Assembly (NCBI GenBank): GCA_965369655.1
Contig: CBDUQR010000016.1
Location: 1-54,150 of the forward strand
Direction: 5' to 3'
Length of the DNA: 54,150 nucleotides
Source: an uncultured bacterium
Lineage (GTDB): Bacteria; Zixibacteria; MSB-5A5; JAABVY01; JAHJOQ01
Shown: positions 36,001-45,000 of the stretch, piece after piece
How positions within the stretch are numbered: position 1 is the stretch's first letter
How the letters are laid out: every line of letters begins with the position of its first letter
Made by a program: the position numbers

Positions 36001-39000
36001 GGGATCAAAACTTCCGGGATAAATAGCGATCTTCATCATATTTTCCTAAGTATCAGGATTTCACTCTGTCCGAATTGGCGTTCTCGCAGCAGTTTATAAC
36101 TCTTTGGATCGAAGGATGCCTTCGACTTGCCGGAGTGTTCGAGGACGATCAGACATCCCGACCTCACAATTCCGTCAGCCGCTATCCTCGATAGAAGCTT
36201 CGTAGCCAAATGTGTGCCGTATGGCGGATCGGCCAGGAGAAGCGTTATGTCGCCGAGCGCGCTAAATCTGTCGAGGGCATCCGGCAGCCTGAGTTTCAGG
36301 ATCTCAGACTTCCCTGTCATCGCGACTGTCTGAAGATTCTCTTTGACGATTTTCAGCGCGTCACGGGAATCGTCGATGAAATAACATTTCTTTGCCCCGC
36401 GCGACAACGCCTCTATACCGAGGTTCCCGGAGCCACAGAACATGTCCGCGACCACGGCGTTCGCTATCTCGGGAGCGACAATATTGAATATGCACTCCTT
36501 CACCTGCTCGAGCGTCGGTCTCACCTCGAGACCTTTCAAGGTTTTGAGCTTGAATCCCTTCTTCTCTCCTGCAACGATTCTCATATCAGATCGCCCCAAG
36601 CGCCGCAAGCGGCAGGATCAAACGTTCCGGTCTTTCCACTGTTCCGCGAAGAACGCGTGAGATGGGTCTGCTTTCCGATCTGACGAATCCGAGCTTTTTG
36701 ACGATCGCATCAGCCAGCCGGTCATCCGTGGAAGCGTCGAGCAGGATTCTGCTTCCCGGATTGCGGTGCGTATCCGAACTCCATGAGAGATAGGTCGCAA
36801 GTGTCTCGATGAACGAATCGGTCGATTCACCCGCTGGCAGGCGCGCAGACGTCAGTTCCTGATCCTGCATGCCGGTAGTGCGTACGACATAGGCCGATCT
36901 CCCACCGAGGTAGATGCATTCCGTGATTTGCGTCTCCTTTGAAGCGGCATACTTGCGGAATACATAATGCAGTATGGATTGCGGCGTCCAGATACTGTCG
37001 AGGACGAATCCGGCGGAGATTGATTGTTTCATCAACGAGTCGATCAGGCGTCTCTTAACAGCGCGAATCTTGCGTGTCTGGAATTCCCCGTTCGCGGAGG
37101 AGCCGACGTACACAGACTCGTATATATAACCTTCGTTTTCATCCGTGAGATGTTTACTTAGTTCCCACATTTCCCAGTCATCACGATCGATCTCGGAGTC
37201 GACAGGGATGCTCACCGTAGATTCCACTATGTAATCGGGTGGCAAGACCAGCGATATCGGCACAAGGCTGCACTTATCAGGGAGCATCGATTTAATCTGC
37301 GTCAGAATTCTGCTGAAGTGATTCGAGGAAGCGCCTGTGTCGGGGCGCAACTCGAACTCTGCCGTACAGACCAGCCGGTGTCTCTTGCGCAATACCCGGA
37401 TTATGACAGCCTTCACGTATCCGTCGTCGAATTCGAGTCCGAGCCTGTATGAGTATGGCGAGATCATTCGTCGCCTGTGCCTATCATGTTCCTGATGGCC
37501 TTGAGTTTCGCCTCTCCAATACCGTTGACTTGCGTCAGATCATCGACCGTATCAAACTTGCCATAGCTTCGCCTGTGCTCCACGATACGCTTCGCAATAA
37601 ATGTCCCGATACCCGGCAGCAATACAAGCGAATCTATCGGGGCGGTGTTGATATTGATCCGGTTGATTATCAGCATTTCCTGCGTTACCGATCCTGCGCC
37701 GCCGTATGTATGAGAAGGGTATTGCGGCAGAGCCTCTATCTGGTTGATGACCACTTCGGGAGTGATCACTTCTCTCGACTTCTGGAAAATCGCGACAGCA
37801 CCTCCTGCAAGGAGCAGCGCCATCAGAAACAGCACTGCTCGGAAATCGGATGCAAACAAGAATTCAGGGCGCTTGAAAACCATATCAAGCCTCGCTATTT
37901 AAGCCTGTCAAAGATATTGTCAGCGTGAGAGAAGGGCAACCAAAACTTTGCCCACGTCGGCAAGACTTTCGGGACTGCACTTGTCCGGAGTGTCTGCGAG
38001 AGTATGCCAGTACGGATAGTCGAAATCGATGATGTCGATCACGGGGATCCCTTTGGTCAGGAACGGGATGTGGTCATCGTAGATCGTATACTTAACCTGG
38101 TCGACAAATGAAGTCACCCCAAGCTCCGCAGCGGTTTTCCACACGAGGTCGTTGATGCGCCTGGCGTTGGACTGCGAGTACTGCTCCCGGTAGATATTCA
38201 GATCCGCGTCGCCGATCATATCGATGAGAATTCCGAATGCGTATTTGCTGCGCGAGATACTCTCGGAGAAATGCTTCGAGCCGATGCAGAAGTAGTCGTG
38301 ATACCCAGCCTGACCATAGTCCTCGCAGTCGAAGAGCACGATGTCTATTCCGTACGGTGAGTCGAGTTCGGAGACTAAGTTAGCGATCTCCATCAGGACT
38401 GCGCAGCCGGAAGCGCCGTCGTTGGCGCCCAGTATCGGGATATGTTTTTTTGATGAATCAGGATCAAGATCGGCGAACGGTCGGGTGTCCCAGTGAGCAC
38501 AGAGGATGATTCGCGGCATGCGCCCCGGATTGAATTCCGCTATCACGTTGGCGAGTTCGGAGAACGTCGTGTCCTCGACTGTATCTGTGAATTCGAATCT
38601 CTGGAGCCAGACCGAATCAGCGCGCGATCTGAAAAAGCTCTGGTAGTAATCGAGTGCCCGTCTTGCTCCTTCGGAGCCGGGATTTCGCGGGCCGATGTCG
38701 CACTGCTCGATCAGATACTGATATGACCTGTCACCGCTGAATTCAGGCGATCCTGATTCGCATCTCGATAACCCGATCGACAGGAGCGCCAGAAACGCCA
38801 GCGTCGGGCGACGGATCGAAATGTGAATCGGCATTTTCAAGTTCATCAGAATCTTATCTCGACCCAGATACCTACCTGGCGAATGTGGGATTTTCGCCTC
38901 GTACGCTTGTCTTCCGTGTCGGACCAGCGCATCTGCAACCCGCCATTGATGCTAGACGAGAAGCTGTACGAAACTCTCGGGTTGAATGTCAGGTCCGTGC

Positions 39001-42000: not shown

Positions 42001-45000
42001 TGAATACAAAGTCCTCGGTGTCGAATTTCTGATTGTTGTTGATGTCTTCCGAGATTTCACCGAGATGGATTCTCAACTGTCCCCGACCATCCGGTTTTTT
42101 CATTCTGATTTCGAGGAACTGTGTCCTGCTCTGATCCCAGGCTCCACGGCTGATCGGGCGCATGACGCCGGCCCATGAATCGGGATTCGAGGTTGATGTA
42201 TCCGGATCGAAGCGAAGCACGAGAATGTGCGCCTTGTTGTCCTTGTCCTGCACGTCGCGATCCCAGATATCAGTCACAGGAATCTCGTCATACGGGTTGT
42301 ACCATATCAGTCTGCCACGCGGATTGGTTGTCTCGTCGACCTCTTCAGGTGGCGATGACCTGGTCCACGCGTGTCGCAGGATAGACAGGCTGTATGCTTC
42401 CTTGGCGCCCTCGAAATCATCGACAAATGCCTCGCCTCGGGTATTCGGATTCGGGATGCTCTGCGCGATCTCTCCGGAGATGCTCATCCGCGATGGCGAC
42501 GTCGCCTCGATTAACGGCAGAGCGTCGAACAGGCTCGTGAGAATCGGCAGTTCGAAACTCGTCGAGAAGTCCGAGTCCCAGATCATGTATTTAGATTCCT
42601 CCTGACCGATTCTGGGCTTTCGATCTGTCGATTTCTCAGTCTTTAAGAGAAGCGTGGATCCGATCTTGAAATTCCTGGAGAGAACATATTCGAGTCGCGC
42701 ACCGAAGAGCGATTTTTTCTCGGCGGCGATGAACGGCTGATATTCGAAATCGACGGTCACGTTGGCGTTCGGATCGAGAACCTCGTCGGTCTTGAATATA
42801 ATCCGGCCGAGATCGTAGTAGATTGTGTAATCCTTGTCTTTCGAGAGTCTGCGTCCGTTAAGCGTAACGACTTCTGATCCCTCGATGATGTTGATCTTTC
42901 CAAGGCTGAACTCAGTCTGCCTTTGTTTGAGTTTTATCGCGAGGTAGTACTTCGACGCACTTCTGATATTCTGGTAGTTGCTTTCTGTGTAAATCTCCGG
43001 CACCGTATCTATCAGATCAGGGTTGCGGAACGGTTCCCGGGTCGGGAAGATTATGAAGCCCCGGTCGAGGAAGACAGTATTCTCATTGATATCGAAGAGT
43101 CCGTCTGGGTTTGGGCTTCCGTTCAGGTCGAGTTTGTCGAGCCCCATGATCTCGATATATGGTGTACCGTCGAGATGATCGAGATTGGCATCTTCCCTGC
43201 TCTCCTCTCCCTGTTTTCCTTTGAATATCTGTACCTCAAGGCCGTCAGGATCGACATCCCGCGAGCGCAGGGAATAGATATTTTTCCACTCGTACTGGAA
43301 AGTTCTGTACGACGGCAGAGGGTTCCCTTTTTTGATGAGCTTGAGAATGAGCGTGTCGCTGAGGGTGTCCGCAGAAATATCACCATACTGGAATCTCGAT
43401 CCATCTGACCTCTCGACTTCCATCCAGCAGGCGAGGTCCTGAGTCACTCCGACGTTCGTAAACGTCTCGAGGTAGAGTTCATTCTCGTAGAATATGAATT
43501 TTGATTTGTCGATTTCCCGCCAGGTAGTACGAACTTCTTCATCCGTGTACAGGTCGGGATTTCGAGGATCGACGTGGGCGTTGCCAGGGACTATGTTGTA
43601 TCTTTCAATGTCGGTTTCGTTCAGGTATAGACGGAAATCCACGATCTTGTCGCCGTACGTGAAGTCGAAGGTGTCAGACGATGCGCCCGGCTGGCCATAG
43701 TAGATCGTTCCGAGATCGAAGAATGTGTTTTTTAGATAATCGTAATCTCTGATGTAATTCACACTCTCTTTTGCGCCAGCGGTGAAGCTCGACTTCTCGG
43801 TGTTTCCTTTCTCCTGCGAAGTTATCACCGTTAGACCGAAATTGCCGAGTTGGGCTGTCGCCTTGATCCCGAAAAGCCCCTGAATTCTCTGCGAATAACC
43901 GACAAACTGTGTGTTGGGAAGCGATAGGTTGGTGTTTCCCGCCTCGATGGTCTGGATAATATCGTCTTCAGTGCCTTTGTATCGAATTTGTATGCGGTTG
44001 TCGAGATCAGCCTGGCGTTTCGAGTCCTGATCGACCGTGACCTCGATCTTGGAGCCGATTGTACCGGAAATCTTGAAGCGTGAGACCTGCTCCATATTGA
44101 GCGACGGGAACTTGCTCTGCTTATATGTGGCTACCTGAGTGCGATCATCCCACTGACTCCTGCCGTCGAAACTTACTCTGTATGATCCGTTCACGCGAAG
44201 CCCCGCACCGCCTTCTCCAATCAAGCTTCTGACAAGTTTCGGGAACTTGATCGGGACAGTTATGTTGAGCAGGCCTTTTGCCTTGTCCGCTTCTTTTTTT
44301 GCTATAGATGTCGAGAGGCTCTGTGCCCAGTACTCGCTGACCTTCACTTCATTCCTGAATCGATTGAATGACAGAGGCTCGGATGATACCGGCAGTGCAA
44401 TGTCGAGATTATAGGTCGATGGATGGTAACTGTGCTTTTTATAGAAAGTGAACATGAGAGCTGGCCAGCTAACATCATTGCTCTTCATCGGCCTGCGTCT
44501 GCCGAGATCGAGCCACTTGTAATTCTCGATACCTATGGAAATGCCTGAGAACTGCTCTGGAGCGGGAAGCGAAACCACCGCAACCGGTGGGAACTCAAGT
44601 GGGATAAACAGCCCCTGGCCCATTGCCGGGGCGCACAGGGTAAATAATGTAATCGCGACAGCAAGTGCCGCGCTGAATGCTGACCTTCGTTTATGCTGCA
44701 ACGACGATAACCCTCAACAGGATTATGGTTTCATACAGTAAAAACTTTCGATAGGCCTCCTCAGTTGAAGTCGCCGAGATATGTTATCTCCTCATCGAGA
44801 TCGTATCCGAATTTATCTCTGACCATCTTTTTCAACTCCATCGCGAGCCTTCTTATATCGTCGGCCGTGGCGCCGCCGAGATTTACGAGGATATTGGCAT
44901 GGTTCTCATAAACGCCTGCATTGCCAACCCGTAGCATCTTTGCGCCGACCTGTTCGAGAAGATAGCCGGCAGCCAGCTTGCCGTGTTCCTCATCCGGTTT

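Follow-up and report, generated by a model that had tools for sequence, protein, structure and literature searches.

The window, a 54,150-nucleotide stretch of DNA from an uncultured Zixibacteria bacterium, carries on its reverse strand an intact gene for SprA, the outer-membrane translocon of type IX secretion (T9SS), flanked by a lipoprotein gene and by murB:

37920..38846, reverse strand: M28-family lipoprotein, immediately downstream of sprA (PF04389, 122.7 bits)
38846..44701, reverse strand: sprA/sov, type IX outer-membrane translocon, intact, a single open reading frame of 1951 aa
44207..44617, reverse strand: N-terminal region of SprA, residues 29-165, ahead of the first barrel strand (from the alignment of relatives)
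44618..44701, reverse strand: likely Sec signal peptide, SprA residues 1-28 from a TTG start, as read off the sequence
44761..45696, reverse strand: murB, a housekeeping gene immediately upstream of sprA, given for context (TIGR00179, 185.2 bits, cut-off 144.5)

In a profile search of the genome that contains the window, full-length SprA scored 707.7 bits with TIGR04189 (cut-off 200) and 130.7 bits with PF14349, and its closest PDB match was Flavobacterium johnsoniae SprA (6h3i_A, E 9.5e-66), as expected from the initial annotation, which had placed a SprA translocon here. The protein was matched in all 151 genomes of the phylum that were sampled (each at least 90% complete, seven of them single-contig) and exceeded the cut-off in 149. 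It measures about 1950-2050 aa in Zixibacteria, compared with 2403 in the F. johnsoniae/P. gingivalis system, and a hydrophobic leader occupies the equivalent place in SprA of relatives. The gene for the M28-family lipoprotein, which we take to resemble glutaminyl cyclases, is a conserved neighbour that adjoins sprA in 23 of 32 loci; murB does so in 17 of the 32, flanks being short in most loci. In F. johnsoniae, the N terminus of SprA connects it with the SkpA/SprE dish (PMC10994853).

Further components are encoded elsewhere in the genome, two of them at the following positions:

Contig C8, 45511-49299: PorU sortase (NF033707, 641.7 bits, cut-off 420)
Contig C27, 33368-35881: PorZ candidate, a propeller-type protein with a C-terminal domain (CTD), beside two PorV/PorQ barrels

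The T9SS of F. johnsoniae and P. gingivalis comprises SprA/Sov, PorV, PorU, GldK/L/M/N, SprE/PorW, Plug and PorG. PorU, also announced previously, was matched in 151/151 genomes (above the cut-off in 147) and contains His- and Cys-containing motifs whose shapes are presumably of the gingipain type. Eleven PorV/PorQ-family barrels, the number given earlier, pass NF033709 among the 44 proteins scanned, and the PorX that had been listed corresponds to a single PglZ protein (523 aa) that begins in a receiver-like manner and is encoded beside a kinase-like gene. The PorZ-like protein stands less firmly than had been claimed: its propeller-type match, CTD and barrel neighbours hold, and the PorZ model NF052228 did not match it. 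The Plug model PF17116 gave no match above cut-off in 151 genomes, and PF16119, which we take to be PorD, gave none in five, both searches being run without a positive control. For SprE/PorW, a TPR lipoprotein in the known systems, a crude list of TPR proteins in this genome included one TPR lipoprotein (566 aa), which has no type IX name in NCBIfam.

Candidate cargo is abundant, about 45 tagged proteins in all; type IX cargo is defined by a signal peptide and a terminal CTD that is cut off during export. TIGR04183 found 37 CTD matches, and an HMM iterated from these gave 49 hits, of which 47 end at most 21 residues before the stop, in agreement with the earlier count of about 47 proteins with a T9SS-type CTD; the 47 include four fragments, either short or at contig edges. 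Most CTD proteins carry a hydrophobic leader, as judged by hydrophobicity alone, and cargo length reaches 2,500 aa.

The most distinctive component is the main PorV. The PorV gene adjoins porU in this genome and in 20/20 relatives, and this PorV contains an insert composed of a seven-bladed propeller and three to four LysM-like modules. All 151 genomes have one PorV with such a propeller and LysM-like insert, which measures 470-720 aa; the other ten PorV/PorQ barrels of this genome are free of it. The remainder matches PorV, a FadL-like carrier of 14 strands (6h3i_F, E 1.6e-53), with a hatch bearing the NPA motif followed by the barrel, and the insert interrupts it between positions equivalent to F. 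johnsoniae PorV residues 63 and 69, ahead of the first barrel strand. In the predicted structure (pLDDT 91.3), the barrel superposes on 8gl6_F (Z 36.8, rmsd 3.7, 307 residues aligned) and residues 73-788 hold one propeller (Z about 25, rmsd about 3.5, about 265 aligned). The LysM profile probabilities of the modules are 96%, 95%, 77% and, for the fourth, 0.2%, compared with 0.5% for a control blade. A LysM domain is a beta-alpha-alpha-beta module that binds peptidoglycan; wall binding by the modules here is putative, and it counts against it that the Pfam LysM cut-off was passed by only 2 of the 26 PorV-like proteins that were scanned. From the alignment to PorV and the assumed barrel topology, the insert would lie on the periplasmic side. 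Complex prediction for the PorV insert (residues 70-790) and SprA residues 29-165 scored 0.00 in two runs, the fold of the partner being uncertain, and is evidence neither way.

The initial annotation had also described GldK, GldL, GldM and GldN as missing from this genome and, in the same pattern, from the Zixibacteria sampled, and had named the lack of a positive control as a weakness. Such controls have now been run, and the models recognise true Gld proteins. GldK never exceeded 350 bits in 151 genomes; generic FGE proteins occur in 41 of them (best 98 bits, the seven of seven GldK controls scoring 510-599 bits), and the present genome had no FGE-fold match. These FGE-domain proteins were rejected as GldK because of their low scores and because the best 20 have no adjacent gldL, gldM or gldN; the GldK cysteine motif makes a weak test, its pattern being present in just 33 of 51 controls. 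GldL remained below cut-off in all 151 genomes, with three weak hits, each outside the membrane part (control, 96.2 bits). The GldM model PF12081 was likewise below cut-off in 151/151, with ten weak hits, none better than E 0.002 (controls, 110-150 bits), and TIGR03517 matched nothing in the present genome (control, 356.8 bits); a first GldM search, run without a control in the phylum of genome G002, was empty in 60 genomes. PF19841 (GldN) had no match in the 151 at E 0.01, its controls (7/7 at 187-246 bits) being obtained with hmmscan, a search different from that used on the genomes. PorP was not matched in a Parabacteroides record that bears sprA.

Further searches of the present genome agreed with these results. 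Home-built HMMs, trained on 51 GldK, 62 GldL, 54 GldM and 49 GldN proteins and run on 57,618 six-frame fragments, gave best E-values of 5.1, 0.066, 2.7 and 2.2, respectively, and the weak GldL and GldM hits appear from their sequences to be MlaD-like and CheZ-like coiled coils. By comparison, held-out GldL, GldM and GldN were detected at E 5e-31 or better with training sequences less than 25-30% identical. Profiles of the membrane helices only gave best E-values of 1.5 and 0.46. Membrane topology was also scanned, by a procedure that picks up 47-48 of 48 true gldL-gldM pairs; in this genome it found both MotAB pairs and revealed no GldLM-like pair, 23-34 candidates being assessed by eye alone. 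The absence of GldK/L/M/N thus holds in this genome with profiles that detect real Gld proteins, and across the phylum (0/151, with SprA and PorU in 151/151), the same picture as in the 41 genomes of the initial annotation. These results confirm, at the level of encoded proteins, that Zixibacteria keep the predicted type IX pore, carrier, sortase and tagged cargo without a recognisable rotary motor. The further statement that this T9SS runs without the rotary motor is borne out only in the sense that GldK/L/M/N homologues are lacking; a substitute proton-driven motor may exist.

How could export proceed with such a set? We tentatively favour, at somewhat below an even chance, type IX-kind export by outer-membrane parts only, in which the carrier is tethered and cargo is released by hand-over and PorU cleavage. 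The periplasmic insert would tie PorV to the cell wall, keeping the carrier at or near SprA; cargo would enter SprA and its CTD would bind the PorV loops. Exit would become one-way because the carrier, though tethered, moves over a short range and hands the cargo over to PorU, which would cleave the CTD and fix the cargo on surface lipid; alternatively, hand-over might be to a dedicated PorQ-like barrel that retains the cargo. A carrier that is always present would make Plug, the PorK/N ring and the GldLM motor unnecessary. In F. johnsoniae, loading of cargo onto PorV is energy-independent, and in Bacteroidota the GldLM motor ejects free carriers (PMC10994853). The tethered carrier is consistent with the distribution of the parts, SprA, PorU and the PorV with an insert being present in 151/151 genomes each and GldK/L/M/N and Plug in none. 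In addition, the single-contig relative G098 has two motors of the MotA/TolQ/ExbB family, TolQ and ExbB; since it holds these only, an extra motor of this family is not needed for the system. We also count in favour the placing and LysM matches of the PorV insert, the topology scan without a GldLM-like pair, the nearness of one CTD tail type to barrel genes, and the Fibrobacterota parallels in PorV design and apparent tail cleavage, on which more is said below.

Several observations count against a tethered carrier. In F. johnsoniae, cargo stays trapped on the translocon once the motor is removed, and its exit is believed to depend on the carrier being pulled away (PMC10994853). Even on its tether, the carrier has to get clear of the lateral gate for cargo as long as 2,500 aa, and the ten barrels without an insert could be ordinary shuttles. 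Moreover, all six genomes examined encode a conserved TonB-type motor. In the main rival reading, this proton motor may replace GldLM, its operon pulling in the periplasm on a handle that might be the PorV propeller and ejecting the loaded carrier from SprA, which we consider unlikely without being far-fetched. The order TPR protein, membrane protein, ExbB, ExbD, ExbD, TonB is identical in this genome and in 5/5 relatives, covering four families, with ExbB 64-71% identical among them; the two accessory genes exceed the needs of a plain TonB system, and three PorV-family genes of this genome share operons with TonB-dependent receptors. However, the 18-kb stretches around exbB contained no PorV-family gene in five of five genomes, and the seven TonB-dependent-receptor-like proteins encoded here suffice as a reason for one ExbB system. 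The top MotA/ExbB locus was Tol-Pal in at least 12 of 14 relatives.

That a motor is present and is too divergent, or of too new a family, for our profiles is improbable. All Gld models were trained on Bacteroidota, and the controls lean to canonical forms because they were gathered via one conserved GldM motif; the topology candidates judged by eye also leave room for such a motor. The gap between the E-values of held-out Gld proteins and the best values in this genome argues against it, as do the membrane-helix profiles, the lack of an FGE-fold match and the arrangement of the OmpA-domain and vWA genes, which does not amount to a seven-gene GldLM-like cluster. Help from ATP, through a MoxR AAA+ ATPase and vWA/Bat membrane proteins, all with genes downstream of porU, is very unlikely: the porU run of this genome does extend into moxR, DUF58 and batA-E-like genes, and 9 of 20 relatives have moxR or DUF58 no more than 20 kb from porU, but in the other 11 neither is that close, and Bat operons occur also in bacteria without type IX secretion. 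We give still less credence to the idea that the parts serve another job and that the CTD-like tails, which resemble the FlgD Ig domain, are not export tags; a FlgD-like flagellar protein does figure once among the 49 CTD-profile hits, but 47 are C-terminal, mostly behind a hydrophobic leader, PorU retains catalytic-type motifs, and 151/151 genomes retain the pore together with the sortase and the carrier. Finally, gldKLMN is a single operon and the assembly consists of 100 contigs, so that its loss during assembly or binning could be imagined; the chance of this is negligible, since assembly gaps are ruled out by the seven single-contig genomes, which are among the 151 without gldKLMN, and every one of the 151 yielded SprA, PorU and PorV.

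The Zixibacteria system resembles the T9SS of F. johnsoniae and P. gingivalis in its SprA, PorU and PorV/PorQ above curated cut-offs, its type A CTD cargo and its PorX-like regulator. It differs in having no match to GldK/L/M/N or Plug (151 genomes) or to a PorD-like protein (five genomes), in the long insert of the main PorV and in a barrel of about 1100 aa after porU. When the T9SS definition of T9GPred/TXSScan was applied (PMC10515386), SprA was found and GldK/L/M/N were not.

The earlier caution that the pattern might already be in print was justified: Rocha et al. (2024; PMC11705866) credit Melioribacter and Ignavibacterium, in one sentence, with only SprA, PorV and Plug, so the motor-less pattern is not first seen here. 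These two genera resemble Zixibacteria in having SprA and PorV, further core parts save Plug being unreported in that sentence, and differ in that they are said to keep Plug. Because Ignavibacteria reportedly keep Plug without a motor, loss of Plug and loss of the motor appear separable; sortase, cargo and mechanism are not treated in the text concerned. For Fibrobacter succinogenes, Raut et al. (2019) describe CTD-tagged enzymes whose tails are apparently cleaved and propose type IX secretion, SprA, PorU and Gld proteins being unnamed in the portion of the article searched (PMC6851124). Fibrobacterota sequences share with Zixibacteria the propeller/LysM-like insert of PorV, the likeness consisting of the PorV design and the CTD tails. 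P. gingivalis PorE is described as combining TPR, a WD40 propeller, a CRD and an OmpA-like wall-binding domain, and would likewise join a periplasmic propeller and a wall-binding-type module to the secretion system. PorE, by contrast, is a lipoprotein of its own that bears an OmpA domain, and in Zixibacteria it is the PorV barrel that houses the propeller and the LysM-like modules as an insert; the likeness is one of analogy, not homology.

Zixibacteria are uncultured relatives of Bacteroidota, and a system without the known motor implies another export route. Current models make ejection of the carrier by the GldLM-driven track an essential export step (PMC10994853), and prediction tools demand GldK/L/M/N to call a T9SS (PMC10515386), so that whole phyla would score as devoid of type IX secretion. 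Type IX secretion has been inferred to have first evolved within the gliding machinery (Liu et al., 2025; PMC12635249), with which the motor-less pattern of Zixibacteria conflicts. It is conceivable, if rather doubtful, that the motor-less form is ancestral: pore, wall-anchored carrier and sortase would export large folded proteins without a dedicated energy chain, a state persisting in Zixibacteria and probably in Fibrobacterota and other neighbours, and the GldK/L/M/N track would have been added later in Bacteroidota. If so, the order is the reverse of the published one. What energy is really used for in export, and which form came first, both become testable questions, and the redesigned PorV offers a concrete experimental handle, related cultured organisms being Fibrobacter, Ignavibacterium and Melioribacter.

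Two further observations concern the barrels. The second giant barrel, present after porU in most genomes, was considered as a relative of SprA and rejected. Its 1106-aa version matched 6h3i_A (SprA) with Z 14.7 (rmsd 9.3, 599 aligned) and generic porins higher (Z 16.8), only two Ig-like segments matched SprA firmly (97% and 94%), and the N-terminal profile match was non-significant. CTD tails are of two types, and the minor type adjoins barrel genes in 8 of 14 cases, compared with 1 of 33 for the other (Fisher p 7e-5, for classes defined after the data were seen).

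The translocon gene lies in the window, in a genome of 2.99 Mb in 100 contigs that is 99.54% complete.

38846-44701, minus strand: sprA, a single 1951-aa ORF

The SprA model TIGR04189 gave 707.7 bits for this ORF (cut-off 200) and its sole PDB relative was Flavobacterium johnsoniae SprA, which bears out the initial annotation of a SprA translocon. sprA is flanked by murB and an M28-family lipoprotein gene, kept in 17/32 and 23/32 related loci, respectively, most of these loci having short flanks. Close homologues of the genome's proteins carry the source label candidate division Zixibacteria; a SprA 59% identical was found on a contig titled Ignavibacteria. 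The assignment to Zixibacteria is thus only as good as these source labels.

The initial annotation had proposed a type IX system devoid of GldK, GldL, GldM and GldN, from searches that had no positive control. Fourteen reference control genomes contain no GldM. A short GldM motif led us to 80 metagenome loci and two phage contigs, whose gldK-L-M-N operons made up our control set; profiles were built from 51 GldK, 62 GldL, 54 GldM and 49 GldN proteins. Searched against the whole genome (57,618 six-frame fragments), they gave best E values of 5.1 (GldK), 0.066 (GldL), 2.7 (GldM) and 2.2 (GldN); by these searches the four proteins are absent, as proposed. In hold-out tests, profiles trained on sequences less than 25-30% identical found GldL (n = 16), GldM (n = 14) and GldN (n = 13) with E values of 5e-31 or better, and found GldK in all seven of the 13 tests with enough training data; these tests flatter sensitivity somewhat, because held-out rows were already aligned and controls were chosen by motif.

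The same pattern was observed across the phylum, in 151 genomes of one class and 19 families, each at least 90% complete and seven of them single-contig. SprA was matched in 151/151 genomes (149 over cut-off) and PorU in 151/151 (147 over cut-off), and each of GldM, GldL, GldN and GldK was over cut-off in 0/151. The positive control is supplied by real Gld proteins, which on these models scored 357 and 110-150 bits (GldM), 96 (GldL), 187-246 (GldN) and 510-599 (GldK). FGE-fold proteins, present in 41/151 genomes, were rejected as GldK: their top score on the GldK model was 98 bits, compared with 510-599 for controls, and the best 20 had no gldL, gldM or gldN alongside. A PorD-type model, which has no positive control, gave 0/5 genomes. 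We conclude that this is a real phylum-wide variant of type IX secretion.

On two phage-looking IMG/VR contigs of 18.6 and 20.3 kb (L005:4536-6572 and L006), which have neither gldK nor gldN, a short gldL of 133 aa and a full-length gldM of 530 aa lie among phage-type genes, including one holin-like and one lectin-domain virion-like gene. The gldL and gldM are possibly phage-borne motor genes; the contigs may also be chimeric assemblies.

Most other parts listed initially were recovered. PorU scored 641.7 against an equivalog cut-off of 420, 11/44 scanned proteins passed the PorV/PorQ family cut-off, giving the 11 barrels reported, and a PorX-like PglZ protein was found in 5/5 genomes tested. 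The PorZ-like protein has a fitting layout, but the PorZ model gave no match. TIGR04183 detected 37 C-terminal domains (CTDs) and an iterated profile 49, of which 47 were C-terminal (four on short or edge fragments), in agreement with the figure of about 47. CTD tails are of two types, PorU's own belonging to the minor one. A barrel gene adjoins minor-type CTD genes in 8/14 cases versus 1/33 for the other type (post hoc classes), as expected if minor-type proteins stay on dedicated barrels. Three operons (L177:8173-14570, L181:2473-9687 and L182:2354-8660) combine a TonB-dependent receptor with a PorV/PorQ barrel, and in two of them a CTD protein of the minor tail type is encoded as well; they may serve in uptake together with a surface partner. 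On contig C7, a 608-aa protein made of a PorV/PorQ barrel and TPR repeats at its C terminus (L178:7984-9810) directly follows a 1457-aa CTD protein.

Exactly one PorV per genome, in 151/151, is long (778-1056 aa vs the usual 300-400 or so). Its insert comes after the NPA motif but before the first strand of the barrel, between residues 63 and 69 of F. johnsoniae PorV; going by FadL/PorV topology, this would be the periplasmic face. In an AlphaFold2 model (pLDDT 91.3) the barrel aligns with that of PorV (Z 36.8, rmsd 3.7, 307 aligned) and residues 73-788 form one seven-bladed propeller. Three or four repeats of a module protrude from the propeller; two of these match LysM repeats of a protein of this genome (95-96%). 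The propeller/module design is shared by sequences that carry the labels Chitinispirillaceae and Fibrobacterota; Edwardsbacteria have a different insert at the same position.

The run porU, long PorV, M6-type CTD protein and DUF5683 gene was conserved in 20/20 relatives (18 families), a second DUF5683 gene being called in 19/20 and an 1100-aa barrel in 16/20. Both DUF5683 paralogues (L173:7340-8982 = C8:37340-38982, minus strand) keep their place downstream of porU-porV in almost every relative; they are helical, with a beta-hairpin at the C terminus whose last residue is Phe.

L173:2989-6309 (contig C8:32989-36309), minus strand: unannotated 1106-aa outer-membrane protein, modelled as a giant beta-barrel

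The model (pLDDT 84.8) is a very large barrel of roughly 36 long strands by our count, sharing two Ig-like segments with SprA. It occurs in 134/151 genomes, usually with a POTRA/Omp85 gene after it, and has homologues labelled Ignavibacteria and Bacteroidota. It may or may not be a second pore.

In F. johnsoniae, according to the available portion of PMC10994853, cargo loading onto PorV is energy-free and the motor is required to extract the PorV-cargo pair. The genome has SprA, PorU, PorV and CTD cargo; how they would work together we can propose only tentatively, at somewhat less than an even chance. A single PorV, tethered to the wall, would be kept docked at the SprA pore, and exit would be ratcheted one way by handing cargo to PorU or dedicated barrels. 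The strongest objection is that cargo exits via the gate covered by PorV, so the carrier still has to move. Its main rival, rather unlikely in our estimate, is that a conserved TonB-type motor pulls the periplasmic PorV insert.

L174:3-5159 (contig C10): six-gene TonB-type motor operon, including an extra TPR protein and a 230-320-aa membrane protein

The order TPR protein, membrane protein, ExbB, ExbD, ExbD, TonB is found here and in 5/5 relatives, ExbB being 64-71% identical across families; no PorV-family gene was found within the fetched 18 kb around it. In this genome the MotA/TolQ/ExbB family numbers four genes: one of Tol-Pal, one in each of two MotAB pairs, and one ExbB. At least one such gene was present in 101/101 genomes tested and several have only two, which in the single-contig genome G098 are TolQ and ExbB. 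A topology scan that does not rely on homology, looking for genes with two predicted helices that precede a gene with one, recovers 47-48/48 true gldL-gldM pairs; it returned 23-34 pairs here, both MotAB pairs among them, and none was GldLM-like by eye. An unrecognised motor seems improbable. That the MoxR/Bat genes neighbouring porU account for export is less probable still, and that these parts have a non-secretory role is the least probable reading.

Compared with all these, tethered PorV remains our preferred reading; with it or not, the Zixibacteria variant drops a step held essential for type IX export. McBride and Zhu in 2013, and Veith et al. in 2013 and 2017, reportedly discussed lineages, Rhodothermus among them, that have CTD proteins and an incomplete set of the genes, and may already state the pattern. 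Our literature search turned up no paper that treats type IX secretion without a motor as a subject of its own, and none on type IX secretion in Zixibacteria. The initial caution about earlier publication was apt to the extent of a one-line notice, in the available text of Rocha et al. (2024; PMC11705866), that the only components in Melioribacter and Ignavibacterium are PorV, SprA and Plug. Both genera are thus said to keep Plug, which closes the idle pore in F. johnsoniae (PMC10994853, in part), whereas in Zixibacteria a Plug model that has no positive control was over cut-off in 0/151 genomes. Excerpts of Bochtler et al. (2018; PMC5837995) and of a 2024 Open Biology paper (PMC11285876) allow that other FCB phyla may have the system, those of Raut et al. 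(2019; PMC6851124) infer CTD cleavage in F. succinogenes, and those of the Caldithrix genome paper (PMC5317091) report that Bacteroidetes-type gliding machinery was not found; the accessible parts of PMC11205867, PMC3534657 and PMC12421860 hold nothing bearing on motor-less type IX secretion. The T9GPred mandatory set, as excerpted, is GldK, L, M, N, SprA and SprE (PMC10515386); the Zixibacteria system is therefore not a member by that definition, although judging from sequence it probably works like type IX secretion. The pattern conflicts with the proposal, in the available part of PMC12635249, that the type IX system arose within gliding; presence/absence counts fit either loss or primitive absence of the motor.

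Sixty-seven proteins of this genome end in a repeat pattern that we take to be dockerin-like, then a short Cys/Pro tail, three of them in the window (14368-16503, 16545-18212 and 19446-22163) and others across the genome; this could be a second surface-sorting signal. Contig C3 (10412-34000, outside the window) carries a cluster resembling a type VI secretion system, with TssJ/K/L/M-like genes named by eye. Trimethylamine-type methyltransferase, corrinoid protein and homocysteine methyltransferase-like genes form one run at 8837-12704 of the window.
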